Made by a program: the position numbers and the translations under genes. Shown here one piece after another: positions 36,538 through 58,754 of a stretch of DNA of 64,000 nt; the stretch's first letter is position 1, and the number at the start of each line of letters is the position of its first letter. The notes under the pieces were generated by a model, which was given only the letters and a program-made list of their open reading frames with translations, did not search any database and had not been told where the DNA came from. The stretch covers positions 3,709-67,708 of the forward strand of contig CAZNIV010000001.1 in NCBI GenBank assembly GCA_964573235.1. Direction: 5' to 3'. The DNA is from an uncultured Gammaproteobacteria bacterium (GTDB lineage Bacteria > Patescibacteriota > Patescibacteriia > 2-01-FULL-39-33).

Positions 36538-36577
36538 TATAAGTAGCGCTCTTTAATTTAACTAACGGAGGTGTACC

Positions 36578-36874: not shown

Positions 36875-36881
36875 AAACAAT

Positions 36882-36920: not shown

Positions 36921-37980
36921 ACCAACTAATAATTTTTTGTACTAACTTCAGATAAATTTCCATTATCGGATTGGCCACATAGGTAATTAAAAAATATTGA
37001 AGATCTTGAAATTTTATGGAACCAACATACAATCGAATAATTTCTTTATCTGTTACTTTGCGCAATTTACGCTGTACCATATTTCGACGCTTCAAAATAG
37101 AACCTAAGCGCGATAAAACCCACATGTCGCCAGCCAGCTTTTCTTTAAACCAACCATTTTTAAGAGCATAAACAAACATACCCAATTCTACTACTAACAA
37201 AATTGGCGATAATAATAACAATGTTCGCCATTTATAATTTTCCAACATCACAATATGGCGATTGCGTTCCATGTAATAAAATTTATACTTCGCCTTACCA
37301 AAATTGTATTTATGATAAACTACAGCAAATGGATCTAATACTACTTTAAAGCCAGCTAAGCGCGTACGCCAGCCCAAATCAACATCTTCATGATACATAA
37401 ATAAGCGCTCATCAAATAAATCCCAGTCTTTCATTTTTTCTATTGCCGACATTTTTAACAAACAAGCGGCACCAGAAGCATAAGGCAATTCAAAAATTTC
37501 GTTCTTTTTATTATCTGGCTCACGATAATGATTACAAAAAGCAAAACCCAAATAATGAATGCTATTACCAAAAGAATTAATTAAATGCTTTTCTGGATGC
37601 AATAACAACTTTGGCTGAACAATGGCGATTTTTTTGTCACTTTCGGCCACTTCTACCATGTGCTCTAACCAATTTGGCTCTACAATAGTATCTTGATTTA
37701 ACAATACCGCATAATCACATGCGCTTTTTTGCGCCAAAAAGAAGCCTTGATTATTAGCCTTGGCAAAGCCAGTATTATCTTTATTTACAATCAAACGCAC
37801 CTGCGGATATTTTTCTTTAATATAGCCAACCGTACTATCGGCAGAATTATTATCAATCACAATTACCTGCAATAAATCTTGCGGATAACGACTATGGAAA
37901 ACACTATCCAAACACTCCGGCATATAGTGCCGTGCATTATAGGTAACAATAATAATGGTAATTTTTTTATGTTGAATCAT
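36919..37980 (-). CDS. Glycosyltransferase family 2
   Basis: ITIIIVTYNA...VIDNNSADST GT-A signature. Confidence 0.8.
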   Translation of the reverse strand: MIQHKKITIIIVTYNARHYMPECLDSVFHSRYPQDLLQVIVIDNNSADSTVGYIKEKYPQVRLIVNKDNTGFAKANNQGFFLAQKSACDYAVLLNQDTIVEPNWLEHMVEVAESDKKIAIVQPKLLLHPEKHLINSFGNSIHYLGFAFCNHYREPDNKKNEIFELPYASGAACLLKMSAIEKMKDWDLFDERLFMYHEDVDLGWRTRLAGFKVVLDPFAVVYHKYNFGKAKYKFYYMERNRHIVMLENYKWRTLLLLSPILLVVELGMFVYALKNGWFKEKLAGDMWVLSRLGSILKRRNMVQRKLRKVTDKEIIRLYVGSIKFQDLQYFLITYVANPIMEIYLKLVQKIISW

Positions 37981-38873
37981 TGTTTTTGCGCAATAATAAT
38001 GAGTTTATTATACCGCTTTAAGGCGACTGATAGCAAATTAATCAACTCTAACACCAAGCGCGGGATAAAATATTTAATGCTCCACGGAAAAATTCTTTCT
38101 GCTCCCGTGTTTTGACTTTTGACCTCTAAAACCCTAAAACCGTGTTGAGCTAAAATATTTTTTAATGATTGCTCACTGTGAATAAATAAATGATGAATAC
38201 CAAACATCCACGACGCCGGCCAACTGATTTTTAATTTTAATAAACCTAAAATTATTAAATTAATTAGTGCGCAACTATTTGGCGTTTCAATAATTAAATA
38301 ACCATTATCTACTAAAGCAATTCGGCTTTTTTCTAATAATTTATTTTGATCACTGACATGCTCAAATAAGTCCCACATAAAAACAGCTTTAAACTTTTCT
38401 ACTGGCCAAATATCATGCAAAACATCCGCCGCCAAGGCCTTAACACCAAACTGCTTAATAGAAAATTCCACCGCTTCGCGTGATATTTCTAAGCCAATTT
38501 CTTGATAACCAGATTTCTTTAAAATATCCAAAAACATGCCGCCACCACTACCCAAATCCAACATTCTATCCCCTTTTACCCACTGGTATTTTTTAGCTAA
38601 ATTAAAAAATAATTTAACTAATTGTTGACCGTATTTAGTGCTTGCATATTGTGGTAAATCGCGATAATAATTATCGCGACTACCCGTAGAATCATACTTT
38701 TGATAATAAACTCCTAATTGCTCCTCACTAGGTAAATTTTCAGTAAACAAAAAATGGCACTTTTTACAGCGACATAAAACATAATTCCCCTGCCCAATCT
38801 GGCGATAATCCAAATACTTTTCACTCCCGCCAGAACAAACCGGACAAATCATATGATTAATTTTTCTGCTCAT
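37977..38873 (-). CDS. Class I SAM-dependent methyltransferase with N-terminal zinc-ribbon
   Basis: CPVCSGG...CRCKKCHF zinc ribbon; LDLGSGGGMF (SAM motif I). Confidence 0.8.
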   Translation of the reverse strand: MSRKINHMICPVCSGGSEKYLDYRQIGQGNYVLCRCKKCHFLFTENLPSEEQLGVYYQKYDSTGSRDNYYRDLPQYASTKYGQQLVKLFFNLAKKYQWVKGDRMLDLGSGGGMFLDILKKSGYQEIGLEISREAVEFSIKQFGVKALAADVLHDIWPVEKFKAVFMWDLFEHVSDQNKLLEKSRIALVDNGYLIIETPNSCALINLIILGLLKLKISWPASWMFGIHHLFIHSEQSLKNILAQHGFRVLEVKSQNTGAERIFPWSIKYFIPRLVLELINLLSVALKRYNKLIIIAQKQ

Positions 38874-39186
38874 CTTTTAGGGCAGACTCTTGGACAATTT
38901 TAGTAATCGCTTTTTCTAAGCGCTGAATATGCGTAATCATTCTAAACAAACCATAAAAAAGAATAATCACTGAAGAATAAACCACTAAATCTACGCCACG
39001 AGTAACCCCAACCATATTAGCTAAATAGCTAGTAATCTCTGGATGCCAAATCACTGCAATGGCACAACACCACAAAACTAACCAAAACCAAAATTGCGGA
39101 CCATTAATTTCTTTGCGTTTTAAACGGGAAATTAAAACACCGATAAAAGTAGCGATAGCTAAAATTAAAATTAATTTTATCAACAT
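38857..39186 (-). CDS. Small polytopic membrane protein (DUF2304/GtrA-like), typically partnered with polyprenyl-phosphate glycosyltransferases
   Basis: 109 aa with 3-4 TM helices, immediately downstream of a Dpm1-like GT2. The family name is from memory. Confidence 0.5.
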   Translation of the reverse strand: MLIKLILILAIATFIGVLISRLKRKEINGPQFWFWLVLWCCAIAVIWHPEITSYLANMVGVTRGVDLVVYSSVIILFYGLFRMITHIQRLEKAITKIVQESALKDEQKN

Positions 39187-39188
39187 AA

Positions 39189-39851
39189 TTATTTTTTAAT
39201 AATTAAATCCCACAAAATATTAAACGCATTAAAAACACTCTGCCCTTTTTTCTTCGAGTATTCCGTATATTCAATCGTTACTGGTACTTCTTGATATTTA
39301 ATTTTTTTATCCGCTAATTCCTGTAAAATCTCACTGGCATAGGCCTGACGATCTTGAACTAAACTAAGTTTTTTTAAAGCTTCGGCGCTCCAAGCCTGAA
39401 AACCATTGTGTACATCAGTGAGCTTTAATCCAGTAGTAAGGCGCGTAAATAATAAAGCTAATTTTAAAGTAATAAGTCGTGACCAAGGCATATTTTTAGT
39501 TTGACCTAAAAAACGCGAGCCCAAAGCCACCTGACATTGATTAGCCTGTAATGGCAGAAGTATTTTACTAATTTCTACTGGCGCCATTTGCCCATCGGCA
39601 TCAAAAAAAACTACCCGAGAAAAATTATTATTCAGAGCATATTTAATACCGGTTCGCAATGCCGATCCTTGACCGCGATTAATCATATGACGCAAAACTA
39701 TAGCCCCAGCCTCTTTAGCTAATTTAGCCGTATCATCTTTTGATCCATCATCCACTAATAAAACTTCGTAAGATAGCGCTCTTACTTGCTTCACCACTTC
39801 AAAAATTTTTTGGCCTTCGTTAAAAGCCGGAATCAAAACCAATTCTTTCAT
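39189..39851 (-). CDS. GT2 polyprenyl-phosphate sugar synthase-like (Dpm1/GtrB-like) glycosyltransferase
   Basis: 220-aa soluble GT-A domain: LIPAFNEG...LLVDDGSKDDT...DADGQ. Confidence 0.75.
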   Translation of the reverse strand: MKELVLIPAFNEGQKIFEVVKQVRALSYEVLLVDDGSKDDTAKLAKEAGAIVLRHMINRGQGSALRTGIKYALNNNFSRVVFFDADGQMAPVEISKILLPLQANQCQVALGSRFLGQTKNMPWSRLITLKLALLFTRLTTGLKLTDVHNGFQAWSAEALKKLSLVQDRQAYASEILQELADKKIKYQEVPVTIEYTEYSKKKGQSVFNAFNILWDLIIKK

Positions 39852-40873
39852 TATTGACCAAATTTATTTGTACCCAAGATATCTTTGTAGGCATTTAAAT
39901 AATCATAAGTTTCACGCAAGCCCTCATCAATCAACACAATCGGAAACCAACCAATTGCTTCTTTCATTAGGGTAATATCTGGAATTGGCTGCTTAATCAT
40001 TAGCTGATTTTTTTCTTCATAAACAATACGTAAATTCTTATCATTCAGCAAAGAAACTTTTTTAGCTAACTCACTCAAGGTAATTTTCCAATCCGAACCC
40101 AAATTAATTGGACCATTTTCTCCACGGGCCATAACCTTAACTATCCCCTTTATGACATCCTTTATATAACAATAACTACTGACCTCTTTTTCTTCACCAT
40201 AAACCGTGATTTTATTACCCAACAAAACATCCTTAATTAATTCGGGAATCATACGACCATCGTGCAAATCCATTCGCGGACCATAAGTATTAAACAAGCG
40301 CACAATTTTTGTATCCAAATTATATTGCAAACGATAATTATTCACTAAGGTTTCACCAAATCTCAAGGATTCACTATAACAAGCGCGCAAACCCAATTGA
40401 TTAACTGGGCCAATAAATTTTTCATCGATCGGCTGAGTTGGAAAAACATCAGCACAAACAGACGGCGAAGAAATATACAAAAATTTAGATTTATATTTTA
40501 CTGCTAACTCTAGCGCATTACGTAAGCCAATAGAATTAGCCATCATAGTTTCTAACGGCTTATCCATATAAAATTTCGGCGAACCCGGCGTAGCTAAAAA
40601 ATAAATTTCTTGCAAACCTTGAAAAGCCACTTCAAACTGTTTAGGTAGGGGGTAGTTTTCTAAATCCAAACCAGCCACAATATCCTGATTTATAAATTTA
40701 AAATTGGAATTTTGCAATAAGTGGGCAATATTGTCTTCTCGACCCGTTAAAAAATTATCCACACATAAAACCTTAGCACGCTGAATTAGTTCATCACACA
40801 AATGAGAACCAATAAAACCAGCACCCCCGATTACTAAAATGTTTTCTTGATTAAAAATTGCTTTTTTGACCAT
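39851..40873 (-). CDS. UDP-glucuronate decarboxylase (UXS)-like extended SDR with substituted catalytic residues
   Basis: GGAGFIGSHL Rossmann motif; collinear with UXS (GLRACYSESLRFGETL, RLFNTYGPRMDLHDGRMI). The YxxxK motif reads YSESL (Lys to Leu) and the TSE motif reads SPS. Confidence 0.75.
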   Translation of the reverse strand: MVKKAIFNQENILVIGGAGFIGSHLCDELIQRAKVLCVDNFLTGREDNIAHLLQNSNFKFINQDIVAGLDLENYPLPKQFEVAFQGLQEIYFLATPGSPKFYMDKPLETMMANSIGLRNALELAVKYKSKFLYISSPSVCADVFPTQPIDEKFIGPVNQLGLRACYSESLRFGETLVNNYRLQYNLDTKIVRLFNTYGPRMDLHDGRMIPELIKDVLLGNKITVYGEEKEVSSYCYIKDVIKGIVKVMARGENGPINLGSDWKITLSELAKKVSLLNDKNLRIVYEEKNQLMIKQPIPDITLMKEAIGWFPIVLIDEGLRETYDYLNAYKDILGTNKFGQ

Positions 40874-40880: not shown

Positions 40881-42593
40881 CTATTTACGATAAATAAAAA
40901 TACTTTTTTCTAAGCCACTAATAGATGTTCCTGAATCATAATTCATGTCTGGAGCCACATCAATTACTAAATTTTGATTATCAAAACTATTAATTTCAAA
41001 GGCACCATCTGTAACTTGGCGCTTTAAACCATTTTCAATATACCATACATAGCCAGAATCTTGATACTGAATAAGTGAACCGTTGGGATATTTACTTTCT
41101 GCCGTTAAAATGCAATCACGATTATTAATATAATCAAGTTCAAAAGCATTTTGAATCAATTTAACCCGCTTTTTAAATGAATTACCATATAAAGATAAGG
41201 CTGCTGACTCATCAAAAATCTGACACAAACCAGCACCTGGAGTAACTGCGTAAGTACGAGGGCTATTTTCAAATTTAATTAATGTGCCTGCCCGCACTGT
41301 CACATTAGAACCAATTCTTAACTGATCAAACTCATCCTGACTAATAACCTTAATTCCCTGCTCTGCCCAAGTACCCTTATACCAAGTCCAATAAGTATAT
41401 TCATTAGAAAATAAGTGACGGATATTATTTTGATCAATATAATAAACTGCTGAGGAATTAGATAATTTAGCCACATATCCCCTACTTGGATCAATAGAAG
41501 CCGTTACTACACTATCTAAAGCCAACCCCGCATTAATCCGACCGGCGCCTAATTCATCCTTATAATCAACATTTTGATTATCCACTTTAACGGCCGATGA
41601 CATTAGTACATCAATAATTTGCTTAGGGGTGGCTGAAGGATCTTTGGATTTTACTAAAGCGGCCACCCCAGAAATAATTGCCGAGGCCATAGAAGTACCA
41701 TTCCAATAAGCGGAGTAATAATTTTTGAAACCTTCTTTTTGCACCGAATAAAAAGCCAAACTTTCAATAAACTCTCCTGGGGCCACCAAATCTACACAAC
41801 TATCTCCATAATTAGAAAAAATTGATTTAATATCGGTATTATCAACCGAAGCTACTCCCAAAATAATATTATTATCCGAATTATTACCATAGCAAACAGG
41901 ATATTTAGGTGTCGCATTTAAATCAATACCCTTGCCATTATCACCATTACCAACTGCCGCTACCACTAAAACACCTTTTTTACTGGCCCAATTAATTGTT
42001 TCTTGCAAGGAATCAGAAAAATTATCACCCACTAAACTTAAATTAATAATAGAGGCGCCATTATTTACCGCATACTTAATAGCATTAACCAAACTAGCCA
42101 CATTACCTTCACCATTAGAAGAAAGCACCCTTAAAGCCATGATCTTAGCATTAAAAGCAACGCCAGTTATACCTTCGCCATTATTTGCCGTAGCGGCAAT
42201 GATACCAGAAACTGCTGTACCATGGTGCATACCAAAATTATTATAACCCGTTTCAAATTTAGGTTTTGGATCGTTAGTACCAGTTATAAAATCCCAACCC
42301 CGAACATCGTCAATATAACCATTACCATCATCATCCTTCCAGTTACCTGGAATCTCTTTATTGTTAGTCCAAATATTGGATTTTAAATCTGGGTGGTCAA
42401 TATCAATACCGGAATCTAAAACCGCTACAATCACACCATCACCCTTAGCACTATCCCAAGCCTTTTCTGCATTAATCTTAGATAAATACCATTGGTCGCC
42501 ATATAATGGATCCGATGGCACATAAGCATTGACCGGCAAGGCCGACAAAAATAAGGAAAATATTATTATAAACGGTATTGTTTTTTTAAACAT
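40881..42593 (-). CDS. Secreted subtilisin-like serine peptidase (S8) with C-terminal ~190-aa conserved module shared with two giant surface proteins
   Basis: Signal peptide; Asp (AVLDSGID), His (HGTAVSG) and Ser (GTSMASA) triad motifs; C-terminal module SAVYYID...PNGSLIQYQDSGYVWYIENG. Confidence 0.85.
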   Translation of the reverse strand: MFKKTIPFIIIFSLFLSALPVNAYVPSDPLYGDQWYLSKINAEKAWDSAKGDGVIVAVLDSGIDIDHPDLKSNIWTNNKEIPGNWKDDDGNGYIDDVRGWDFITGTNDPKPKFETGYNNFGMHHGTAVSGIIAATANNGEGITGVAFNAKIMALRVLSSNGEGNVASLVNAIKYAVNNGASIINLSLVGDNFSDSLQETINWASKKGVLVVAAVGNGDNGKGIDLNATPKYPVCYGNNSDNNIILGVASVDNTDIKSIFSNYGDSCVDLVAPGEFIESLAFYSVQKEGFKNYYSAYWNGTSMASAIISGVAALVKSKDPSATPKQIIDVLMSSAVKVDNQNVDYKDELGAGRINAGLALDSVVTASIDPSRGYVAKLSNSSAVYYIDQNNIRHLFSNEYTYWTWYKGTWAEQGIKVISQDEFDQLRIGSNVTVRAGTLIKFENSPRTYAVTPGAGLCQIFDESAALSLYGNSFKKRVKLIQNAFELDYINNRDCILTAESKYPNGSLIQYQDSGYVWYIENGLKRQVTDGAFEINSFDNQNLVIDVAPDMNYDSGTSISGLEKSIFIYRK

Positions 42594-42710: not shown

Positions 42711-44036
42711 ATGCTAAAAAGTAAAAATATTTTATTACTCTTGGGCGATTTAACCATCTTTTACTTAGCGTTAATTATCGCGCTAATTACTCGTCAACAA
42801 TACCCCCTCTCAATAAGCACTTGGGATGCCCATTTTTGGCCATTTACCATCTTTTTCTTTCTCTGGTTAGCTAATTTTTTTATTAACGGCTTTTACGATT
42901 TAAAAATCAGTTATAATAATGGATCACTACTTAATAACATTTTTAAACTATCCTTAATAAATTTTATCGTCGCCATAGTTGGATTCTATTTTGCCGCCCC
43001 TTGGCTTGGTAGCATTAAGCCACAAACCACATTAGTAATTCTAACTTTAATTGCCGCCGGAATGCTTTTTGGCTGGCGTAAACTTTTTTACAACATCATC
43101 AAATCTGAAGCTATTGCCAATAATGTTTTAATTCTTGGAAATTCCGATTTAGCACAACTACTTAATAAAGAAATCAATTCTCGCAAACAACTCGGCTATC
43201 GCGCCAATATCATTGAAGATATTCCCGAAAACCTCAAACAATACTGTATTGCCAACAACATCAATATCATTGTTCCAGTAATGGATATTAAAAATCATCA
43301 AGACTTAGCTAAAAGAATCTTTGAGTGTTTAGCCATTGGCGTAAGCGTGTACAATTTACCCCTATTTTACGAACAAATCACTGCCACCATACCAATCGAT
43401 CACATTGATCAATTCTGGTTCCTAGAAAATCTAAGCGAGAACTCCAAAAAATCTTACGACGTTATTAAGCGCGGATTAGACATATTTTTTTCTATCATTG
43501 GCATAATTATCGCTCTGCCTTTTTTGCCAATCATCGTCACTATTATTAAACTCGAAAGTGCTGGTTCGGCTTTTTTTACCCAAATTCGTACTGGCAAAAA
43601 CGGTAAGCCATTTTTAGCTCTTAAATTTCGCTCTATGATTAAAGATGCTGAAAAAAATGGAGCGCAATGGGCTACAAAAAATGATGCGCGCATTACCAAA
43701 TTTGGCTCTTTTATGCGTAAAACCAGATTAGATGAAATCCCTCAACTAATCAATGTTTTACGAGGCGAACTAAGCTTTGTTGGCCCGAGACCAGAAAGAC
43801 CTGAATTTATCGAGATATTAAGCCAAAAAATTCCTTACTATAAAGAAAGATTACTGGCAAAACCAGGCTTAACTGGCTGGGCACAACTTAACGGCCCCGC
43901 TTATGGTGGTTCTGAAGCCGAATCTAAAGAAAAAGTAAAATACGACTTATTCTATGTCAAAAACCGCTCACTCTGGCTAGATGCCTCAATTTTGCTTAAA
44001 ACCATTAAAATTGTCTTAAGCGGAAAGGGACAATAA
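42711..44036 (+). CDS. Polyprenyl-phosphate hexose-1-phosphate transferase (WbaP/CpsE-type bacterial sugar transferase)
   Basis: N-terminal TM helices and a C-terminal sugar-transferase domain (RPERPEF..., KPGLTGWAQL). Confidence 0.85.
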   Translation: MLKSKNILLLLGDLTIFYLALIIALITRQQYPLSISTWDAHFWPFTIFFFLWLANFFINGFYDLKISYNNGSLLNNIFKLSLINFIVAIVGFYFAAPWLGSIKPQTTLVILTLIAAGMLFGWRKLFYNIIKSEAIANNVLILGNSDLAQLLNKEINSRKQLGYRANIIEDIPENLKQYCIANNINIIVPVMDIKNHQDLAKRIFECLAIGVSVYNLPLFYEQITATIPIDHIDQFWFLENLSENSKKSYDVIKRGLDIFFSIIGIIIALPFLPIIVTIIKLESAGSAFFTQIRTGKNGKPFLALKFRSMIKDAEKNGAQWATKNDARITKFGSFMRKTRLDEIPQLINVLRGELSFVGPRPERPEFIEILSQKIPYYKERLLAKPGLTGWAQLNGPAYGGSEAESKEKVKYDLFYVKNRSLWLDASILLKTIKIVLSGKGQ

Positions 44037-44044: not shown

Positions 44045-45193
44045 ATGGAAAACACCACCAAGCCAAAATTACTTTATGTAATCACCCAGGCGGAATGGGG
44101 CGGAGCCCAAAAATATATTTTTGATTTAGCCACTAGCGAGGAGGCCCAAAATTATGATATTACGGTCGCCATTGGTAATACAATTAACACTACCCTAATA
44201 GATAAACTAGCCGATAAGGGTATTAAAATTCACTCCCTAAAAAAATTGATACGCTCAATCAATCCCCTAAAAGACTTATCGGCTATCAGCGAACTAAAAA
44301 ATTTATTTTCCACTCTACAACCCAATATAATTCATCTCAACAGCTCTAAGGCTGGCATTATTGGTTCTTTTGCCTATCGCCTATGGAATAATATTAACTG
44401 TAGATTAATTTACACTGCTCATGGTTGGGTTTTTAACGAACCATTACCAAATTGGAAAAAAACTTTCTATTTAAATTTAGAAAAAAATACCGCTAAAGAT
44501 AAAAATCATATAATTTGTGTGGCCCAAAGCGACCAAAAAATAGCCACCGAAAAAGGTATTTTTCCACGCCAAAATTTAACCACCATTCATAATGGCATAG
44601 ATATTGCCGAAATGAAGCTATTAGAAAAATTTGAAGCGCGTCGTCTTTTAGAACTACAACCAAATGCTTATATTATTGGTACCATAGCTAATTTTTATCC
44701 CACTAAAGGTTTAAAATACCTTATAGAAGCTATGTATTATTTAGATAACAACTACAATCTACCAATTTATCTAGCCCTTATTGGCGATGGCCAACAAAAA
44801 GAAGAGCTTCTTAATTTAATTGGTAACTATAATTTAAAAAGTCGTATTTTTATTTTAGGAACCAAAGAAAATGCCGCCCAATATCTAAAAGGCTTTGATG
44901 CTTATATTTGCTCTTCAGTCAAAGAAGGTATGCCTTACTCTATTATTGAGGCTATGATGGCCGAATTACCAATAATTTCCACCAATGTGGGCGGTATCCC
45001 AGAGATGTTAGAACAAAATATTTCTGGAATTTTAATTGACCCACAAAAACCAATTTTATTAGCCGAAAATATCAAAGCATTATATGAGCATCAAGAAATT
45101 GCCGATATTTTAGCTACCAACGCCAAGAATATTGCCCAACAAAAATTTACCAAACAACAAATGATTGAACAAACATTTGCCCTATATAAATAA
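44045..45193 (+). CDS. Glycosyltransferase family 4
   Basis: GT-B fold; EGMPYSIIEAMMAELPIIST motif. Confidence 0.8.
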   Translation: MENTTKPKLLYVITQAEWGGAQKYIFDLATSEEAQNYDITVAIGNTINTTLIDKLADKGIKIHSLKKLIRSINPLKDLSAISELKNLFSTLQPNIIHLNSSKAGIIGSFAYRLWNNINCRLIYTAHGWVFNEPLPNWKKTFYLNLEKNTAKDKNHIICVAQSDQKIATEKGIFPRQNLTTIHNGIDIAEMKLLEKFEARRLLELQPNAYIIGTIANFYPTKGLKYLIEAMYYLDNNYNLPIYLALIGDGQQKEELLNLIGNYNLKSRIFILGTKENAAQYLKGFDAYICSSVKEGMPYSIIEAMMAELPIISTNVGGIPEMLEQNISGILIDPQKPILLAENIKALYEHQEIADILATNAKNIAQQKFTKQQMIEQTFALYK

Positions 45194-45205: not shown

Positions 45206-45244
45206 CCAAAAAGCCGGCTACTTCGCCGGCTTTTATTATTTTCG
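45206..45244. terminator. Bidirectional intrinsic terminator between convergent GT4 (+) and Wzy_C-TPR (-) genes
   Basis: AAAA-AGCCGGC-tacttc-GCCGGCT-TTTTATTATTTT; perfect 7-bp GC stem flanked by A and T runs. Confidence 0.75.
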
Positions 45245-45251: not shown

Positions 45252-47369
45252 TTACTTTTTTACTTCCGAGGCTTTACTCTTAATAATTGCATCGTTTACC
45301 TGTTTTATAAACTTATCCGACCAACTCTTTAATTCCGGATCTAAATTAATTGCCTCATTAGCTTCGCTTAAGGCATAATCAAATTGGCCAGTCATAGCCA
45401 TAATCATAGCCAATTGACGATGCGATTCGGCATTCTTAGTATCTAATTTAACCGCCGCTAATGATGTCTCAATAGCTTTATTCATATAAGTAGCTACCCG
45501 ATCTTTTGATCCAATACTATTTAAATACATACCATAATATAAATAAGCATAAGCTACTTCATAATACATTAAAGGGCGACCTGGGCTTAATGATAAAATA
45601 TGCTCTGCTGCCTCTGCGCTTTCTTTAAATCTTTCTGGTTTAAATTGACCATAGGTAGTATTAAAACGCAACCAAACTAAATAATTAGAAACATTATTTG
45701 AATTTTCAGCAATCATCTTATCTAAAGAAATTTCTACGCGATCTGCAGTTTTTGCCACAAAATCCTGACTAATATTACTAGAATTAGCTATTTGATCTAA
45801 TAAATTAGCATACTGACGATAATACTCTTGATTACCTGGAGTATTCTCACTAATAGCATCTTCTAAGTTTTGCATCCTTTGTTCTATGTTCGCACCTTGG
45901 TCACCGAGCGCCTTAATTACCAACTTATTAGCATCTAACGGAATTAAAACCACGGCATATAAAGCCGGCACAAATAATAAAGTAAAACCGACAAGGGTGA
46001 TCATCTTAAATTGTGTCCGACCCAAAACTTCACCCTTACTTTCTGGATTAAACAAACCAATTAAGGCAATCATTAGAAATAAGGGAATGTATGTAACTAG
46101 GGCCTCAAAAATAAACATATTCTGAACACAATACGCCATCATGGCTAAAGTGGCCCAAACCGGAATAAAATAGCGATTACTTAGTTGAGGATTTTTAATA
46201 AAATGACGCCACAAGAAAAATAACGGCACAAATAATAACGCCAAATACGACAATAAACCAAAAATACCACCAGTCAATAAGCGATCCAAAAACATATTAT
46301 GTGAACGATCGAACCACGGTTCTGTCATGGTCGGCGAAAAATACTTATCAAACGGCTGATAAAAATTTTCATACCCCCAACCTAAAATTGGACGCTCTTT
46401 AAATCCCTGCCAAGCCGCCTTCCAAACAATCATACGATTCAAACCAGTTCCCTCGCTAACAGAAATACTAGTAATACGAGTTAATAAGCTACTATTTTTA
46501 ACAAAATCTGAATTTTTGTTTACAAATACCCATACTCCAAAAAAGATACTAGCGCCATAAGTTAAGCCAATAAACCAAAGCCAAAAACGCCTAACTGTTA
46601 AATTATAACTACCAATATAAAACAACACTCTTTGATGTGGCCAAAAGTAATAAACTAAATATAATCCAAAAAGCGCAATCGATAAAGCCAAGCCAATCAT
46701 GCCCCCGCGGGTTAAACTATAAAAAACAATGTAACTAGAAGCTAATATGCTAATAAAATAATAAATTCTAGCCCAAATATTCTGCCTCTTAAACAACAAG
46801 AATAAGGCAAAAAAAGCAACAAAAATCATATAACCAGCCATATAGCCAGCGTTGCCCAGTGAGCCAGAAATACGAGTACTGGCATCAAAATGAAACCAAC
46901 CCCATTTAAATAATTGATCTAGACCAATAAAAAACTGAGCCAAACCTGCCACTAAAAAAATATCCAAAGCCAACAACCAATCTTTCATTTTACGCAAAAA
47001 ACCAGTAGTAATTAATAAGAAGATAAATAAATGAATTAACAATAAAATACCTTCGCTGCGCTCATTATTACTCCAAAAACTATGATAAAAGTAATCTCCT
47101 GCCAAAGAAGCAATGGTAATTAATACCAAATAAAGTGCCATTAATCCGCCAGACAAGTTCAAACGTAAACGATATTCCGGATTATTTAAAGCCAATAGTA
47201 AATAAGCTAACAACATCACTTCTATTGTGGTGTTAAATATGTAAGTTTTAGTAGTGATAAATGGAAAAAACAAATGCCCATCAACAAACAAGGGTACAAA
47301 CATAATAACGCCCAAACCAAGCCATAACAGCGATTTAGCGATAAGGTTTACAGTCGGATTATTCTTCAT
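45252..47369 (-). CDS. Wzy_C (O-antigen ligase/polymerase-like) polytopic membrane protein with C-terminal TPR domain
   Basis: ~12 TM helices; Wzy_C loop motifs (SRISGSLGNAGY, ILGWGYENF, HNMFLDRLLTGGIFG with a conserved His); C-terminal TPR-like helical repeats. Confidence 0.6.
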   Translation of the reverse strand: MKNNPTVNLIAKSLLWLGLGVIMFVPLFVDGHLFFPFITTKTYIFNTTIEVMLLAYLLLALNNPEYRLRLNLSGGLMALYLVLITIASLAGDYFYHSFWSNNERSEGILLLIHLFIFLLITTGFLRKMKDWLLALDIFLVAGLAQFFIGLDQLFKWGWFHFDASTRISGSLGNAGYMAGYMIFVAFFALFLLFKRQNIWARIYYFISILASSYIVFYSLTRGGMIGLALSIALFGLYLVYYFWPHQRVLFYIGSYNLTVRRFWLWFIGLTYGASIFFGVWVFVNKNSDFVKNSSLLTRITSISVSEGTGLNRMIVWKAAWQGFKERPILGWGYENFYQPFDKYFSPTMTEPWFDRSHNMFLDRLLTGGIFGLLSYLALLFVPLFFLWRHFIKNPQLSNRYFIPVWATLAMMAYCVQNMFIFEALVTYIPLFLMIALIGLFNPESKGEVLGRTQFKMITLVGFTLLFVPALYAVVLIPLDANKLVIKALGDQGANIEQRMQNLEDAISENTPGNQEYYRQYANLLDQIANSSNISQDFVAKTADRVEISLDKMIAENSNNVSNYLVWLRFNTTYGQFKPERFKESAEAAEHILSLSPGRPLMYYEVAYAYLYYGMYLNSIGSKDRVATYMNKAIETSLAAVKLDTKNAESHRQLAMIMAMTGQFDYALSEANEAINLDPELKSWSDKFIKQVNDAIIKSKASEVKK

Positions 47370-47454: not shown

Positions 47455-49026
47455 TTAACGCAAAGTAAAGGTTTTTAGACTAACTTCAAAATCAGATAAC
47501 GCTTTAGTATATAATTTTTTATCTGTGCCTACATACTCAAAGCCAATTGTTATCCATCTATCTCCCGATCTTAAGTTATAATTAACTGAATAACCTAAGA
47601 CATTATTTTTATCACCTAAAAAAGTATAGCTTGTTTTCAGCCAATTATTTTTATTTAACTTATACTTCACAACTGAACTCAATTCTTTAATATTTAAACC
47701 AGTCAATCCTGCCATTTTATTAACCTGACCAACCCGCTGACGATAATATGTCTGATAGCCATTATTGTCTAAAGACTTAGTCGCCTCATTAACCGGCGAG
47801 ATATTTACTGTGGCTCTAAAATTAGAAAAACTAGGACTGGCCGCTAAAATCAAAATTGGGCTAGTTTTATCTTTTCGCCCTAAAATAGACCAATTCTTAC
47901 CAACTTTAAGATAAAAATTAGGGTTAATATTACTATACTGATTTACATAACTAATTGGCCGATTATCGTTACTAAAATTAATATCCTCTAACATTCCATT
48001 AATTGCAATAAGATCTTTATCTTCATAGCCATAATTATAAGCTAGGGCCACTAAATATTCTTGACGAGCAAAAAATCTAATTTTATTTTCTACCCCTGCT
48101 AAATAAAAAGCTACCTCTAAACCCTCTTGGCCACTGGCAGTAATAATTTTTTCTGTTTTAATAATTTCTACCTGACCCAAATTTGGTCCACTTTTAATAT
48201 AAGGAATGGCATCGGATAAAGTTGCCGTTCGCGCCATACGAATAAGCGAAACAGTTAAATTACCACCGCCGGCATTATTTTTTTTATCAATTAATACGCC
48301 ATTTTCACCTAAAATCTGAAACCGCCAAACATCCGACTTAGTTAATTCAAAATAAGGATAAAAACTAATGAAAGTGTTTGTACCCTGCAAAATCTTAGCT
48401 TTTTTAACTAATAATTCCACATTTCCCTGAAAAGACACCTTAATAGCTGGGTTATCTATACTATTAACCACCCATTCATTAATAACCGCTTTTTCATTTT
48501 TCCCCCAATTAGCCGTACTATTAATATTATCAATTGCCTTAGTAATTGGCATAAAATCATAAACTGAATCTGAACTAACATCAGTCACGTTATTAATTTT
48601 AAGTAGGGCCAATCCCATACCCTTATTAAAGGCGATCAAAGATCCGGTATAAGAACAATCTACATCTTTATTTGCCTCTTTCTGTAAGCAAATATGATAA
48701 CCAGTTTCCTCTCTAGATCCATCAAAAGCACTTTCTACTACCGCTGTATCATAATTAACCAAAACTACCCCCTTGGAATTAACAGTATAACCAGCTCCCT
48801 CTTTAATCTTTTGCACAAAATAATCCGGATCCACCACAAAAGTTTTTACTGTCGCGATAGCCTTGAAATTTTCAGCCAAAACCACGGGCGTGGAAGTAGT
48901 AGCGGCCATAGCTACATTAAAAACAGCTAGACTTAAACCAATAAGGCCTAAAAAGCTCAAAAAAATAGTAGTTTTTCTATTCATATTTGATAATAAAAAC
49001 TGTTTAATAAGCCAATTATAACACAA
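47455..49026 (-). CDS. Hypothetical secreted/membrane-anchored protein
   Basis: N-terminal signal/TM segment (the likely start is the internal MNRKTTIFLSF); no family recognised. Confidence 0.5.
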   Translation of the reverse strand: MCYNWLIKQFLLSNMNRKTTIFLSFLGLIGLSLAVFNVAMAATTSTPVVLAENFKAIATVKTFVVDPDYFVQKIKEGAGYTVNSKGVVLVNYDTAVVESAFDGSREETGYHICLQKEANKDVDCSYTGSLIAFNKGMGLALLKINNVTDVSSDSVYDFMPITKAIDNINSTANWGKNEKAVINEWVVNSIDNPAIKVSFQGNVELLVKKAKILQGTNTFISFYPYFELTKSDVWRFQILGENGVLIDKKNNAGGGNLTVSLIRMARTATLSDAIPYIKSGPNLGQVEIIKTEKIITASGQEGLEVAFYLAGVENKIRFFARQEYLVALAYNYGYEDKDLIAINGMLEDINFSNDNRPISYVNQYSNINPNFYLKVGKNWSILGRKDKTSPILILAASPSFSNFRATVNISPVNEATKSLDNNGYQTYYRQRVGQVNKMAGLTGLNIKELSSVVKYKLNKNNWLKTSYTFLGDKNNVLGYSVNYNLRSGDRWITIGFEYVGTDKKLYTKALSDFEVSLKTFTLR

Positions 49027-49069: not shown

Positions 49070-49097
49070 TTATCTAAATGATTTTAACTATACAAGA

Positions 49098-52000
49098 TTA
49101 AAGTGATGGCGTTATTTTTAATTTTGTGGTTCTAGCTTCTAGGGTTGGCTTTAGTTGCACATAAAAATTATAATAGTTAGAAGTATAAACCTTATCATCT
49201 ATAGATATCTGGAATATACCATTGCAAGTCGTGGCACTACCATCGACAAAAACAAATTGATTTGAATCAATGGGCATTGAGAAGTTTTTAGAAAAAAATG
49301 GCTGCTGATCTTGTTTAATGGTTGGATTAGAATAACAAGTGAACTTATTATTATAATATGGCGCTAATTTGTCAAAAAATCTCTTTAATGTGAAATCAAC
49401 CGTATAAGATCCACTACCAATATCTGTGGCCGTCATTGAATCTACATCTAACATGTGACTTAATTCTAATGGAGCTGGGATAGTTTCACTCTCAATGTTT
49501 CCGTCAGTAGTAACTTTTTTAACGCTAACCTGGCAATTATCAGCAAGTAAATCAGACAATTTAACTCCATCAATGGTTATAACCTTAAACTGATAACCTT
49601 TTTTACCTCCAAGATCAACCCATTCTCCAAAATCATCTGGTCTATCGAGATTCATCTCTACGGGTAAATCATCCACAAAAAATGTCTGAGCAGAAACAGT
49701 TCTATCTTCTTCTTGGCTACCACATTTATAATGCGCCACTAAAGCATCTCCATTTTTAACATCACCTTTAACAAAAGCATAAATATCGAAAGGATTAGCT
49801 TCGTTACCAATCTTATTTGAGCTTATAGTACGGATACCATCACCTATTTTTAATTCCAAAGTGGCGGAGGAAATATGTATATAAAGGTTAGCAATAAAAT
49901 AGCTCTGGCAACCGTCTTGACGATAAGTAAATTGAAGTGTCTGATTTGCTTTTAGGTATATTCTCTTGTAAGGAATATTATAACCTAGATCAGTTGGAGG
50001 ATCAAACATATCTCCGCTGGTTAATTCTTTACCATCAACCAAATAAGAAAGACCTGAAATTGGGCGTGTATAAGGAAAATCTACGGCAATTTTTAAAGTG
50101 GTTTTATTAACAAAAGATTGAATGTCAAGCGTACTACTACAATAATAACTCCCGTTAGGAACTACTAACTTTTGAGTGTACTGCTCTTTATCTACAATAA
50201 AATCTTCTGTTACTAGCCTCTCACAGATACCATTATTATTCTTAAAATCTTTTGGACATATTACTGATTTACCGATAGTCACCCCTGTCGACTTGTCATT
50301 GAAACTTGTCAGATCAATACAAGTACCCTTTTTGGTAGCATCGTAAGTTGGTCCACCTGGTGAAAAAGATATAGTATAATCTTCTGGGAAATTAGAAGTT
50401 AATATAATCGAAGATAAGCCATAAAAACCAGTTGGAAATGATACGGTACTAGTGCCTTGTTTGTAATAATCAGTATAATATCCACTTTCATTTTTACAAC
50501 CGTAAGCATTATAGCCTTCGACTAGAGCCGTTTTATCGTAAGCCGTATAGGTAGTGCCGCTATTAGTTTGATCAGGGAATTTTGGAGTTCCAACACCCAA
50601 AGCATTGACAATACTACCAGAGAAAGAGTACCTCACCCCTCTAATTAAACCCTTTATAACCATCGGTTCACTACTAGTCGCTGAAAAATATATATCCTTT
50701 AAGCCATAGACTGGGTCATGAACATAAATAGTCTTTTTAGTCTTTGGATCGGTAGAAGTACTAACCCTATAAACAGAAACTAAATAACCAGTGATTGGCA
50801 AATTACCCGTATCAACACCTTGGGTATCAATAAAAATCTCTGCCCCACCCATAATATTGGTGACACTCTTTGGGGCGCTAGAAACAGAAGTTGTAATTGG
50901 AGTAATAGCCACTGATTTAGCGGAAGCTAGACTAGTACCGTAACCATTATTAACAGTCGCTGTGAAAGTATAAGCGACGCCCGGAAGAAAACCCGTAGGA
51001 AAAGTAACTGGGCTATAAGCACTGATGGCAATTAGTCTACCTTTATCGCTCTGGTCAATTGGAGTGGTTGGCTCGGCTATAACTGTATATTTAATTGGTG
51101 AAGCGCCACTCTTATTTTCGGGCATAAGAATATCAACCTGAACACCAGATGATGTGGCGAGAAAATAATTAGCAAAGGTTTTATAGCCATTTGCATAAGC
51201 GTGGGGTAAAACGGAACTTGGCGTAGCTGGTCCAACCGGGGGAATAACCTGAATTGATGAGGATTTAATACTGGTGCTTTGACCATTATAATTAGCCAAA
51301 GATACATTAAAGGTATAGTAAGCGCCTGGTTCGAATTTACTAGAAACAATAATGGGCGAGCCAACTTTAGAAGAGCCGCCACCAACAAGAGAAGAATTAG
51401 CAACACAGTCTGGACAATTCTTATAAGTACCCACCGACTGATACGCAACATAAGTGTTTGTCGTCTGGGTTTTGGCATTACGACAAACATCCACAGTAGA
51501 ATTGGTAGTACAACCAAGAATACTTCCTTTGTCTATAGGTTCAGTAAAGGTTAGTTTGATTTGGGGATTAGCAGTTTTATTTGGATATAGGTCACCACAA
51601 GTCCAAACATATGAAGGAGGTGTAATTCCAAGAGTAGCTTTTTCGCATTGAGTTGGATTTCTAACGGGCAATGAAACTGAAGCTAACAAATTAGTTGGGG
51701 GGTTGGGAGCAATCTTGGTATAGCACTTACCATCACCACCCGAAACACCAGGAGCACTACAAGCTGATGCTCCACAAGTTGGCGGATTATTCATACCATT
51801 AACACAAACACACGATGTACCCGATAATTTAGTACCAGAGGGACAAGTAGTTACGGAAGGAGGGGTACAAGTTGGCGGATTAGTGCCACCATTAGCGCAA
51901 ACGCAAGTATTATTGCTAGATAAAATAGTTTTTCCACTACAAACTGGCGTGGTTGACAAAGTACAAGTTGGTGGATTAGTCTTGCCATTAGCGCAAACAC

Positions 52001-52727
52001 AATTGGATCCTGAACGAATCGTACCAGAAGGACAAGTAGCTACTGGAGGGGTACAGGTTGGTGGATTAGTACCACCATTAGCGCAAACGCAAGTATTATT
52101 ACTAGACAGGATAGTTACACCACCACAAACTGGCGTAGTTGGCAAAGTGCAAGTTGGTGGATTGGTTTTACCATTAGCGCAAACACAGGCATTACCTGAC
52201 AAATAAGTTCCCGCAGCGCAAGCCATAGGGGGAGTACATGTAGGGTAATTCTTTCCACCATTAGAACAAACGCAACTATTAGATGCAGTAGAAAAGAAGC
52301 CAACAGAAGCACAAGGCGCTACTGGCAAGGTACAGGTTGGTGGGTTAGTTTTACCATTAGAACAAACGCAAAAACCATTAGATAAAAAAGTGCCGACAGC
52401 ACAAGTTTTTGGAGTGGAGCAAATCGGATAATCGTTAGCACTATTAATACAAACACATTGATTGTTAACAATTTTAGCATTGGCTGGGCAAATAATACCA
52501 TTACCTACCGACGGAACAATGCTACACGTTGGGTAATTAGTCGCTCCGTTTGAACAAGCACATGTACCATTAACCACTTTAGCTGTCGCTGGACAAACGA
52601 CCTGAGTTGAAACCGAACTAATAGCCGCAAAGGCCAATCCCCCAGTCACTGCCAAGGCTAGGGTTAAAACAATCGCTTTTGTACTAATTTTTGTTAAAAT
52701 CCCAACTGACATTTGCGTTTTTGTCAT
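49098..52727 (-). CDS. Giant (1209 aa) secreted/surface protein with ~12 tandem Cys-rich ~33-aa modules followed by a beta-rich region
   Basis: Signal/TM segment at the N-terminus; repeated C-x(7-9)-CxCxNGxTN(P/Y)PTC(T/S) modules at aa ~45-330; a strong intrinsic terminator follows downstream. Confidence 0.7.
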   Translation of the reverse strand: MTKTQMSVGILTKISTKAIVLTLALAVTGGLAFAAISSVSTQVVCPATAKVVNGTCACSNGATNYPTCSIVPSVGNGIICPANAKIVNNQCVCINSANDYPICSTPKTCAVGTFLSNGFCVCSNGKTNPPTCTLPVAPCASVGFFSTASNSCVCSNGGKNYPTCTPPMACAAGTYLSGNACVCANGKTNPPTCTLPTTPVCGGVTILSSNNTCVCANGGTNPPTCTPPVATCPSGTIRSGSNCVCANGKTNPPTCTLSTTPVCSGKTILSSNNTCVCANGGTNPPTCTPPSVTTCPSGTKLSGTSCVCVNGMNNPPTCGASACSAPGVSGGDGKCYTKIAPNPPTNLLASVSLPVRNPTQCEKATLGITPPSYVWTCGDLYPNKTANPQIKLTFTEPIDKGSILGCTTNSTVDVCRNAKTQTTNTYVAYQSVGTYKNCPDCVANSSLVGGGSSKVGSPIIVSSKFEPGAYYTFNVSLANYNGQSTSIKSSSIQVIPPVGPATPSSVLPHAYANGYKTFANYFLATSSGVQVDILMPENKSGASPIKYTVIAEPTTPIDQSDKGRLIAISAYSPVTFPTGFLPGVAYTFTATVNNGYGTSLASAKSVAITPITTSVSSAPKSVTNIMGGAEIFIDTQGVDTGNLPITGYLVSVYRVSTSTDPKTKKTIYVHDPVYGLKDIYFSATSSEPMVIKGLIRGVRYSFSGSIVNALGVGTPKFPDQTNSGTTYTAYDKTALVEGYNAYGCKNESGYYTDYYKQGTSTVSFPTGFYGLSSIILTSNFPEDYTISFSPGGPTYDATKKGTCIDLTSFNDKSTGVTIGKSVICPKDFKNNNGICERLVTEDFIVDKEQYTQKLVVPNGSYYCSSTLDIQSFVNKTTLKIAVDFPYTRPISGLSYLVDGKELTSGDMFDPPTDLGYNIPYKRIYLKANQTLQFTYRQDGCQSYFIANLYIHISSATLELKIGDGIRTISSNKIGNEANPFDIYAFVKGDVKNGDALVAHYKCGSQEEDRTVSAQTFFVDDLPVEMNLDRPDDFGEWVDLGGKKGYQFKVITIDGVKLSDLLADNCQVSVKKVTTDGNIESETIPAPLELSHMLDVDSMTATDIGSGSYTVDFTLKRFFDKLAPYYNNKFTCYSNPTIKQDQQPFFSKNFSMPIDSNQFVFVDGSATTCNGIFQISIDDKVYTSNYYNFYVQLKPTLEARTTKLKITPSL
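51740..52600 (-). repeat. Tandem coding DNA repeats (~99 nt unit in a ~190-200-nt higher-order repeat, ~85-90% identical) inside the Cys-rich giant protein gene
   Basis: For example 51841..52000 versus 52031..52190: ggacaagtag...gttggtggattagt...ccattagcgcaaac... recurs. This also produces the repetitive antisense ORF at 51883..52206. Confidence 0.8.
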
Positions 52728-58752: not shown

Positions 58753-58754
58753 TT

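Follow-up and report, generated by a model that had tools for sequence, protein, structure and literature searches.

The locus and its genes

The window considered here, meaning the whole stretch of DNA analysed, is 64 kb long and comes from a Patescibacteria (CPR) bacterium. Its gene of main interest (45252..47369, - strand) starts with ATG and encodes a membrane protein of 705 residues, in agreement with the preliminary description of this DNA. By enzyme class, the product is very probably a Wzy_C/WaaL-fold (GT121-like) glycan transferase, terminated by a TPR domain. The gene is the final one of its run on the - strand and is convergent with a pair of genes on the + strand. The first of the pair encodes a WbaP-type polyprenyl-phosphate hexose-1-phosphate transferase (42711..44036, +; Bac_transf, E 1.2e-66; TIGR03025, 365 bits, cutoff 295), which would supply an Und-PP-sugar primer, the donor type of WaaL-fold enzymes. 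The second encodes a GT4 (44045..45193, +; Pfam) that is, by synteny, the most conserved neighbour of the Wzy_C gene. A bidirectional terminator-like hairpin, AAAAGCCGGC-loop-GCCGGCTTTT, is located between the two convergent genes (45209..45234). A promoter scan yielded 59 sites, no better than shuffled sequence (51.9±7.0).

A block of genes for glycan assembly and modification, annotated with Pfam and NCBIfam, extends over 33397..40873, all on the - strand except that of a HAD phosphatase (35761-36537, +). It comprises two GT4 (33397-34548 and 34545-35693, -), a GT2 (36919-37980, -), a methyltransferase (37977-38873, -), a DUF2304 protein (38857-39186, -) with its PpgS/Dpm1-like GT2 partner (39189-39851, -; NCBIfam PpgS-like match), and an SDR (39851-40873, -). 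The priming transferase, the three GT4, the Dpm1-like synthase with DUF2304, the methyltransferase, the SDR and the phosphatase of the preliminary description are all recovered. Its count of four GT2 in the locus has to be lowered to the two above, three further GT2 genes lying 20 kb off at 16121-19441. Between the block and the WbaP-type gene, a secreted S8 protease (40881..42593, -) interrupts the run of glycan genes; its C-terminus is a putative wall-binding module common to the giant proteins described below. The protease belongs to the surface context and would be no more than a possible member of the pathway. Wzx and Wzz, which the preliminary description proposed to look for, were not found with Pfam in the 64-kb window, nor was any flippase; no ABC or Wzx exporter lies nearby, and Wzx and Wzz/PCP are also absent, by Pfam, from the annotated flanks of two relatives.

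On the other side of the Wzy_C gene, a secreted protein and three giants are encoded on the same - strand, as had been noticed, but upstream of it rather than directly downstream, and other genes (one AAA+, two OMPdecase-like and one SPFH) separate the giants. The closest, across a gap of 85 nt, is a protein of 523 residues (47455..49026, -) that starts with a hydrophobic segment resembling a signal and has no family match in Pfam or NCBIfam. It is followed by a secreted, Cys-rich giant of 1209 residues (54 Cys; 49098..52727, -), whose gene ends at a terminator-like hairpin (49041-49071), and by a 1213-aa surface protein (53981..57622, -) with the shared C-terminal wall-binding module; both giants are lineage-specific. 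The last giant, P0121 (60791..63967, -), is cut by the window end, leaving the C-terminal 1058 residues (hence g1058 type) of a full length of 1181. The ENA contig that carries it contains 386 bp upstream of the giant gene. P0121 has a signal peptide and a wall-binding module besides its Ig-like array: its AF2 model (pLDDT 84) displays about 8-9 β-sandwich domains, and its Foldseek matches are the Ig-like arrays of adhesins. In homologues of P0121, the N-terminal module is swapped for PG_binding_1 or SLH. Pfam and NCBIfam return nothing for the giants except a weak PKD match in the 1213-aa protein.

The giants had been described as Ser/Thr-rich. Their S+T content is indeed raised, 18.5-24.9% versus 9-14% in five comparison proteins, but only moderately. 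Glycosylation tracts of the serine-rich-repeat style were rejected, the S/T-dense windows amounting to three of 30 residues that reach 40-47% at most. Such a moderate content is no evidence of glycosylation.

Fold, catalytic residues and family of the Wzy_C-TPR protein

Residues 1-489 (45903..47369, -) harbor 13 predicted TM helices, a 12-TM WaaL-like core followed by TM13, which places the C-terminus outside in the predicted topology. TM9 and TM10 are joined by a large extracytoplasmic loop (residues 284-358; 46296..46520, -), which bears R298, R312, W352, D354, R355 and H357, while R221 is predicted at the outer end of TM8. Residues 495-704 (45258..45887, -) form a domain of TPR-like helical repeats, with a predicted extracytoplasmic location. 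Both parts were correctly anticipated in the preliminary description: Pfam Wzy_C (PF04932) matches residues 207-376 (E 2.3e-16; 60.3 bits, above the gathering score of 31.7), the His-bearing motif HNMFLDRLLTGG corresponds to residues 357-368, and the C-terminal repeats are those of a TPR domain. The AF2 model has high confidence (pLDDT 89.5, pTM 0.88) and exhibits the GT-C(B) fold of WaaL (PDB 7TPG), with 12 TM helices and a long extracytoplasmic loop.

A PDB search with the single sequence was insufficient to reach WaaL, TPR proteins being its only matches; a family profile was required. In the profile searches, the best solved match is WaaL of Cupriavidus metallidurans (PDB 7TPG/7TPJ; CAZy GT121), at 14% identity, a profile-level similarity. 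The two share the 12-TM core, the large external loop and an Arg/Arg/His triad, and they differ by the addition of TM13 and of a 210-aa external TPR domain in the present protein. No polymerase was matched in the PDB searches. PDB 9RMK, named ‘Oligosaccharyltransferase’, matches the family profile weakly (E 4.3e-5). To note, 9RMK is outranked by TPR matches in that search, and no published PglL structure paper was found in the literature for comparison with it. In NCBIfam, no WaaL model matched, and an IctB identity (TIGR00947) was rejected at 39.3 bits versus a cutoff of 366.4.

In the profile alignment, R221, R312 and H357 align with R191, R265 and H313 of C. metallidurans WaaL. All 58 relatives retain R312 and H357; R221 is retained in 56 of them, the remaining two having Lys. 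The two Arg of WaaL bind the Und-PP phosphate and the His activates the acceptor, whereas in the related inverting Wzy polymerases an Asp or Glu takes the place of this His (PMC10920833); neither acid occurs there in the 58 sequences, all of which have His. The alignment and conservation of the WaaL triad imply an Und-PP-glycan donor and inverting transfer. They also dispose of one doubt attached to the preliminary description, a loss of the catalytic His or Arg on alignment, since all three residues are present and conserved.

With about 3,974 clusters at 50% identity that reach E<=1e-30, the family is large; it comes almost entirely from Patescibacteria, and the close relatives are all Patescibacteria MAGs. 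Pfam Wzy_C is matched in 42/42 members. PglL_A (PF15864) is matched in none of the 42, and Wzy_C_2 (PF11846) weakly in three (best E 7.8e-5). These PglL-specific models, suggested earlier as a check, both fail to match the present protein at E<=1. The database label of the relatives is a generic ‘O-antigen ligase family protein’, and a literature search on the Wzy_C-TPR family in CPR, Parcubacteria or Patescibacteria gave nothing relevant, its one hit, the Lipocone paper, being without mention of it. To our knowledge, Patescibacteria have neither LPS nor an outer membrane. The distribution of the family therefore indicates that it is not a lipid A-core ligase and, as the host lineage is expected to lack the lipid A-core, the acceptor should differ from that of WaaL. 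The preliminary description had opposed its reading to orthology with a diderm WaaL; the Patescibacteria origin of the relatives and the 14% identity to the solved WaaL speak against such orthology.

Conserved gene neighbourhood

Synteny was compared over 61 Wzy_C loci of relatives. A GT4 orthologue is convergent with the Wzy_C gene, at most three genes downstream, in 34/54 loci, and a WbaP-type gene adjoins it in seven of the 54. Upstream and on the same strand, a g1058-like giant is encoded in 25/36 loci; at least eight of these 25 giants are devoid of the anchor module found in the window, as judged from the lack of a match to the S8 protease C-terminus. A small TPR protein is also encoded upstream in 15/36 loci, PMT_2(-TPR) GT-C genes are found near Wzy_C in at least six loci, and two tandem Wzy_C paralogues, both keeping the His, in 11/61.

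Reverse look-ups starting from the giant protein retrieved a Wzy_C gene downstream in two cases out of three. In one of them, Wzy_C directly adjoins the gene of a homologue anchored by PG_binding_1, and rhamnose and GT2 genes come after Wzy_C; the third, an SLH-anchored homologue, has no Wzy_C gene within 10 kb. The g1058/P0121 type is the only giant whose linkage to Wzy_C is conserved, and it is the candidate acceptor. The 1209-aa, 1213-aa and 523-aa proteins were rejected as conserved partners since BLASTP against the 61 loci and L066/L067 reveals no body-level homology, the 1213-aa protein matching neighbours in relatives solely via the shared anchor module. That the 1209-aa and 1213-aa giants are substrates is possible but unsupported. 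The link drawn earlier between the enzyme and the surface proteins gains independent support for the g1058 type, through synteny and the reverse look-ups, but not for the 523-aa protein or the remaining giants.

The known systems that this layout resembles are the S-layer glycosylation clusters of Firmicutes. WsfB of Paenibacillus alvei and WsaB with WsaA of Geobacillus stearothermophilus are predicted S-layer O-OTases of monoderms, compared here by their described architecture. WsfB, as PglL, is a Wzy_C protein with a C-terminal TPR, while WsaB is accompanied by a TPR protein of its own, WsaA, whose gene lies upstream (PMC2943079). The present protein is, like WsfB, a multi-span Wzy_C membrane protein of a monoderm with the TPR fused at its C-terminus, and the small TPR protein just upstream of Wzy_C in relatives recalls WsaA, so that CPR loci display fused and separate forms. 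In both cases the gene resides beside an S-layer-type gene and genes for a WbaP/WsaP-type primer enzyme, GTs, a methyltransferase and sugar-nucleotide synthesis (PMC2943079). Two features of the Firmicute systems are thus found, Wzy_C with TPR and a cluster with an S-layer-type gene, a primer enzyme and GTs. The differences are the phylum, a candidate acceptor that is an Ig-array of ~1,200 residues with another wall anchor, the PMT_2-type GT-C enzymes added in relatives, and the lack of a nearby ABC or Wzx exporter.

PglL/PglS of Neisseria and Acinetobacter also have the Wzy_C core, the conserved Arg/Arg/His, a C-terminal TPR-like region and a gene often beside that of the substrate; R215/R288/H338 of E. 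coli WaaL correspond to R224/R298/H349 of NmPglL (PMC3643930). Besides the lack of PglL_A and Wzy_C_2, the present protein differs from them by its monoderm context and by the absence of a pilin-type substrate nearby. The enzyme kind is thus a known one, of which the present family is a clade still to be characterised, and the mechanism is not new.

Acceptor and proposed pathway

The conserved neighbours suggest that ready-made sugar chains are attached to the giant wall-anchored protein. Our best reading, which with its whole pathway we place a little short of an even chance, is an O-oligosaccharyltransferase acting on the g1058/P0121 surface protein. The enzyme would be an inverting WaaL-fold (GT-C, CAZy GT121-like) transferase of the cytoplasmic membrane. 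Undecaprenyl phosphate would be primed by the adjacent WbaP-type phosphoglycosyl transferase, and the Und-PP-oligosaccharide extended and decorated on the cytoplasmic face by the convergent GT4, the nearby GT4/GT2, the methyltransferase and the SDR. Once the glycan is turned outward by a flippase, R221 and R312 would hold the Und-PP moiety on the outer face, and H357 would activate an acceptor hydroxyl for en bloc transfer. The most likely acceptor would be a Ser, Thr or Tyr of the S-layer-like giant, which would presumably form an S-layer and be recruited by the extracytoplasmic TPR domain, aided in relatives by the separate membrane-anchored TPR protein.

A protein acceptor is favoured by the TPR domain, predicted outside the membrane, by the signal peptide, wall-binding module and Ig-like array of the giant, and, as far as gene order can tell, by the g1058 giant synteny with its two positive reverse look-ups, the small TPR proteins and the PMT_2 neighbours; genes of O-OTases often adjoin those of their substrates (PMC3643930, PMC12645811). 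On the other side, judged from sequence, protein glycosylation has the status of a candidate here, the PglL/PglS signatures are missing, no flippase is encoded in the window, the conserved giant gene lies 13 kb from the Wzy_C gene, with unrelated genes between, and the SLH-anchored homologue had no Wzy_C gene within 10 kb. Furthermore, TPR domains occur in polysaccharide-export scaffolds too. S-layer genes commonly adjoin genes for wall-polymer synthesis, often so in Firmicutes, and synteny therefore cannot separate protein glycosylation from the synthesis of a wall glycan.

This last point serves the main competing explanation, a ligation of the kind that the preliminary description had offered alongside O-glycosylation. 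We consider it possible but less probable: the enzyme may ligate the Und-PP-glycan to a membrane glycolipid anchor (lipoglycan/LTA-like) or to a wall glycopolymer or its linkage unit. The product would then be a secondary glycan of the CPR cell wall, perhaps in contact with the layer of surface proteins or covering it. The enzyme has the fold and the Arg/Arg/His triad of a lipid-acceptor ligase, PglL-class signatures are absent, and the abundance of GT, PGT, SDR and methyltransferase genes is typical of polysaccharide clusters; CAZy GT121 is reported from Gram-positive bacteria too, with unknown acceptors (PMC10920833). Conversely, the linkage to the giant holds when its N-terminal anchor differs, including the PG_binding_1 homologue, which should need no dedicated wall glycan. 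In monoderms, the attachment of wall polymers is normally the work of LCP phosphotransferases rather than Wzy_C enzymes, and this also counts against a wall-glycan ligase. Finally, an external TPR domain and a separate TPR protein are better suited to protein recognition, as for WsfB, WsaA and PglL (PMC2943079).

That the enzyme is instead a Wzy-type polymerase, joining Und-PP repeat units into a capsule/EPS-like polymer in a Wzx/Wzy pathway begun by the WbaP-like enzyme, appears improbable. Inverting polymerases (BP-Pol, CAZy clan GT-C1) do share with it the clan, the fold class, the Und-PP donor, conserved Arg residues and WbaP-primed loci; Pfam Wzy_C is found in some polymerases as well, the adjacent PGT belongs to the WbaP/EPS type (TIGR03025), the locus has multiple GTs, and the tandem paralogues of 11/61 loci could be a polymerase and a ligase. 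Yet the invariant His is that of O-Lig/GT121 enzymes rather than the Asp/Glu of polymerases (PMC10920833) and is retained in both tandem paralogues, Wzx and Wzz/PCP partners were not found in the window or in the relatives examined, and the best solved match is WaaL, the PDB searches returning no polymerase. The fusion to a TPR domain is a further difference, as we know of no such fusion described for Wzy polymerases. A true WaaL joining O-antigen to the lipid A-core of a diderm is hardly credible, and so is an IctB-like protein with no part in glycan transfer: the generic source name and the weak IctB match stand against relatives almost all from a lineage lacking LPS, the distant similarity to WaaL, an IctB score far below cutoff and the absence of lpx, kdo and waa genes within the 64-kb window.

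Returning to the O-oligosaccharyltransferase, we would extend it, more tentatively, to a conserved surface-glycosylation supra-operon of Patescibacteria, in which two mechanistically different TPR-bearing GT-C enzymes may decorate the same giant protein. Its putative order would be an ECF sigma factor with DUF5667, the ~1,200-aa wall-anchored Ig-array protein as candidate S-layer protein, a small membrane-anchored TPR adaptor, PMT_2(-TPR) GT-C enzymes using polyprenyl-P-sugars, the Wzy_C-TPR O-OTase using Und-PP-oligosaccharides, and the convergent GT4 with the PGT.

CPR/Patescibacteria are mostly uncultivated and often episymbiotic, and very little is known of their envelope. This very large family bears only an ‘O-antigen ligase’ label, in organisms without an O-antigen acceptor. 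Whichever acceptor holds, the annotation should read GT121-like ligase/OTase instead of WaaL; so corrected, it provides testable hypotheses together with the conserved neighbourhood. A ligase of wall glycans would reveal a pathway for CPR envelope polymers independent of LCP enzymes. OTase-dependent O-glycosylation has been described mainly in Gram-negative bacteria (PMC12871550); an O-OTase for the conserved giant protein would extend it to a whole superphylum and offer new TPR-guided O-OTases for glycoengineering. It would also explain how CPR cells build a glycoprotein coat, possibly for host attachment and phage recognition. If the supra-operon reading is true, the candidate phyla radiation would gain its first defined protein-glycosylation system, with a coat that could shape both host attachment and recognition by phages.

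Fold and catalytic residues of the Wzy_C-TPR protein

The sequence does contain the 705-aa minus-strand ORF (45252..47369), with its conserved His-containing loop (HNMFLDRLLTGG, residues 357-368). The proposed Wzy_C core is borne out by Pfam, which places this domain (PF04932) over residues 207-376 with 60.3 bits against a gathering score of 31.7 (E 2.3e-16). The TPR matches of the protein alone are sub-threshold (TPR_2, E 0.0045); the C-terminal TPR domain is real, as designed TPR proteins are matched by a 42-sequence family profile (E 1.2e-13) and TPR_17 is matched in 24 of 42 relatives. The structure model displays 13 hydrophobic helices. The topology predicted from this model and from the K/R counts per loop fits a cytoplasmic N-terminus, an external 75-residue loop (284-358) and a 13th helix leading to an external TPR domain.

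Among solved structures, the O-antigen ligase WaaL from Cupriavidus metallidurans gives the best match (Foldseek TMt 0.66, E 4.7e-5) and is also hit by the family profile HMM (E 4.8e-10). In the profile HMM alignment, R221, R312 and H357 are aligned with WaaL R191, R265 and H313; the equivalent residues are R215/R288/H338 in E. coli WaaL and R224/R298/H349 in N. meningitidis PglL (PMC3643930). Among 58 full-length relatives, paralogues included, R312 and H357 are invariant, while R221 is an Arg in 56 and a Lys in 2; the catalytic His and Arg, whose loss had been named beforehand as one argument against this assignment, are therefore retained. The protein thus exhibits the domain, the fold and the catalytic triad of the Wzy_C/GT121 type, from which we infer a WaaL/PglL/WsfB-type Und-PP-glycan transferase in mode of action.

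A large family of CPR bacteria

Homologues are abundant (36-45% identity, 685-795 aa), and the named ones belong to Patescibacteria MAGs (Buchananbacteria, Portnoybacteria and others) with 'O-antigen ligase family protein' as their sole label. A scan of species-representative genomes yielded 61 loci with relatives (designated L plus a number), in which the informative organism names are CPR lineages, many MAG records being only generic 'uncultured'; the two weakest matches of the scan, at 25-26% identity, carry the labels Gemmatimonadota and Acidobacteria. An exhaustive profile search with the family returned 3,974 clusters at 50% identity (E<=1e-30). The window itself is CPR-like, with a GC content of about 36%, a strong gene strand bias and compact housekeeping genes. 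Our literature search found no paper on this family in CPR. This CPR clade is very large and uncharacterised, and its database name, 'O-antigen ligase', is misleading.

Two Wzy_C-TPR paralogues are found in tandem, close together and on the same strand, in 11 of the 61 loci (e.g. L007, L009, L011, L032, L036, L042, L045). In five loci compared, one is 19-26% and the other 30-44% identical to the window protein. Both keep the Arg/Arg/His triad, which points to two distinct specificities, for acceptor or donor, rather than to a polymerase paired with a ligase.

The closest functional precedents, in architecture and context, are predicted S-layer O-oligosaccharyltransferases of Firmicutes: WsfB, a Wzy_C protein with a C-terminal TPR motif, and WsaB, devoid of TPR, whose gene is immediately preceded by that of WsaA, a 168-aa TPR protein (PMC2943079). 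The CPR loci have both layouts, the TPR being fused as in WsfB or carried by a separate protein as in WsaA/WsaB.

Gene order, synteny and the candidate acceptor

The neighbour genes listed in the preliminary description exist (Pfam/NCBIfam), with several details to be corrected: the locus holds two GT2 enzymes and not four, three others being about 20 kb away, and the giant-protein genes lie upstream of the Wzy_C gene, on the same strand, and not downstream. The giant proteins (1209 aa, 49098-52727; 1213 aa, 53981-57622; 1058 aa, 60791-63967) are moderately rich in Ser and Thr (18.5-24.9%, vs 9-14% in five comparison proteins) and contain no serine-rich tracts. The window end truncates the last ORF; P0121, the full-length protein, has 1181 aa. 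Interspersed in the run of giant-protein genes are genes for an AAA+ protein, an SPFH protein and two OMPdecase-like proteins. The AAA+ protein (52767-53867, minus strand, 366 aa), encoded between two giant-protein genes, carries a TM helix at its N-terminus and only one AAA+ module, with AAA_lid_9, like half a ClpB. The OMP-decarboxylase/HUMPS-family genes (58081-59831) are in tandem on the plus strand, opposite to the surface-protein genes, and the product of the second is extended by about 140 aa at its N-terminus. Downstream of the Wzy_C gene, a bidirectional terminator-like hairpin (45209-45234) separates it from the convergent WbaP-type gene (42711-44036) and GT4 gene (44045-45193).

ORFs were called in the 61 loci and compared with the window proteins. 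A convergent orthologue of the GT4 is found within three genes downstream of the Wzy_C gene in 34 of 54 loci, and a WbaP-type gene within five genes in 7 of 54. Of the 36 loci in which 6 kb or more is available upstream, 25 have a same-strand homologue of the giant gene 60791-63967 on the upstream side of the Wzy_C gene. An upstream ECF sigma factor, often followed by a DUF5667 protein, is present in 21, an upstream TPR protein with a membrane anchor (about 230 aa) in 15, and GT-C genes of the PMT_2 type, placed between giant and Wzy_C gene, in at least 6. The PMT_2 assignment is confirmed by Pfam; in L013 (6434-9985) and L021 (7560-9984) these genes immediately precede the Wzy_C gene, and one of them carries its own TPR repeats. 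The 1209-aa, 1213-aa and 523-aa window proteins are not conserved neighbours of the Wzy_C gene in the related loci compared. O-OTase genes often adjoin those of their substrates (PMC3643930, PMC12645811).

The reverse search, starting from giant-protein homologues (three look-ups), gave a Magasanikbacteria contig with the order ECF sigma, DUF5667, giant gene, inserted genes, second giant gene and 705-aa Wzy_C gene. A homologue anchored by PG_binding_1 is directly followed by a Wzy_C gene, beyond which lie GT2, methyltransferase and rhamnose-pathway genes; around an SLH-anchored homologue, no Wzy_C gene is present within 10 kb. In the annotated flanks of two relatives, the ECF sigma and DUF5667 genes sit side by side immediately before the giant gene, and in relatives (L001, L007-L009, L066 and others) they usually precede it, suggesting that the surface-protein and glycosylation block is under envelope-stress-type regulation.

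In P0121, a signal peptide is accompanied by an N-terminal alpha/beta module (about 200 aa), a short linker of Ala, Thr, Gly and Ser, and some eight or nine beta-sandwich domains (AF2 pLDDT 84) resembling the Ig-like arrays of bacterial adhesins. This modelled anatomy is that of a wall-anchored surface or candidate S-layer-type protein. The module (about 130-200 aa) is common to three secreted proteins: P0121 (~30-235, N-terminal, off the window), the S8 protease encoded at 40881-42593 on the minus strand (357-565) and the 1213-aa protein (1085-1212), being C-terminal in the latter two. It shares the motif GDYVKT..SSAVYY...HLF.N..TF.TW...SQ.EFD...NVT.RPG..L.KF.NSPR.Y and has no match in Pfam or NCBIfam. 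As PG_binding_1 or SLH domains take its place in P0121 homologues and it terminates the other two proteins, it is probably, judging from sequence, an undescribed CPR cell-wall-binding module. The giant protein lacks this anchor in at least 8 of 25 syntenic loci; the linkage thus tracks the protein body, which speaks mildly against a Wzy_C enzyme merely building an anchor-bound polymer.

The 1209-aa secreted protein (minus strand), whose gene is followed by a terminator-like hairpin (49041-49071), contains 54 cysteines and about eight tandem repeats 'C.C.NG.TNPPTCT.P' (residues ~45-330); it matches no family, and the related loci contain no homologue of it.

Further from the locus, a second envelope-glycan cluster (12018-19441, minus strand) encodes a GT4, an MreB paralogue, a 648-aa DUF4012 protein and three GT2s, one of which (501 aa) matches only Glyco_trans_2_3. 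Two MreB paralogues (6430-7467, 13135-14157) are found in an apparently small CPR-type genome, as are two tandem cofactor-independent phosphoglycerate mutases (19569-22714). NiFe-hydrogenase large and small subunit genes (26305-31904, minus strand), with FAD/NAD and 4Fe-4S subunit genes, resemble group 3b and lie beside an unusual HypC/HupF and radical-SAM/BATS fusion (28693-29952).

Proposed mechanism and alternatives

The WbaP-type enzyme, which passes TIGR03025, would make Und-PP-hexose, to be extended and modified by the conserved GT4 and nearby GT4, GT2, methyltransferase and SDR enzymes, then exported by a putative flippase. The Wzy_C-TPR enzyme would bind Und-PP via R221 and R312, H357 would activate the acceptor hydroxyl, and the glycan would be transferred en bloc with inversion. 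We favour the giant surface protein as acceptor, at a Ser, Thr or Tyr; it may be recruited through the external TPR domain.

Ligation of the glycan to a glycolipid or wall glycopolymer is the less likely but still serious alternative: its chemistry would be identical, wall-polymer genes are also neighboured by S-layer genes, and the PglL/PglS-specific signature domains are missing (PglL_A in 0 of 42 sequences; Wzy_C_2 weakly in 3 of 42, this protein not among them). Against it stand the anchor-independent synteny with the giant protein and the TPR parallels with WsfB and WsaA. A Wzy polymerase is improbable: inverting members of this clan carry Asp or Glu in place of the ligase His (PMC10920833), and the invariant His, kept by both tandem paralogues, therefore favours a ligase or oligosaccharyltransferase; moreover, neither Wzx nor Wzz is encoded within the 64-kb window. 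Taxonomy and scores leave next to no room for a true WaaL or IctB (39 bits vs a cutoff of 366 for the latter): to our knowledge, CPR bacteria have no LPS or outer membrane, which makes a lipid A-core ligase role very unlikely.

Within the locus, a GT2 and DUF2304 gene pair (38857-39851, minus strand) resembles the mycobacterial Rv3631/Rv3632 pair; its GT2 is closest to PpgS, a polyprenyl-P-GalNAc synthase. No GT-C enzyme that would take a PpgS-type donor is encoded in the window, whereas L013 and L021 have the PMT_2 GT-C genes noted above. A CPR-wide S-layer glycosylation system using two classes of TPR-bearing GT-C enzymes is a tentative idea, with the odds rather against it. The conserved supra-operon of ECF sigma factor, giant Ig-array protein, TPR adaptor, PMT_2 GT-C, Wzy_C-TPR and GT4/PGT offers a testable entry into CPR surface glycobiology.
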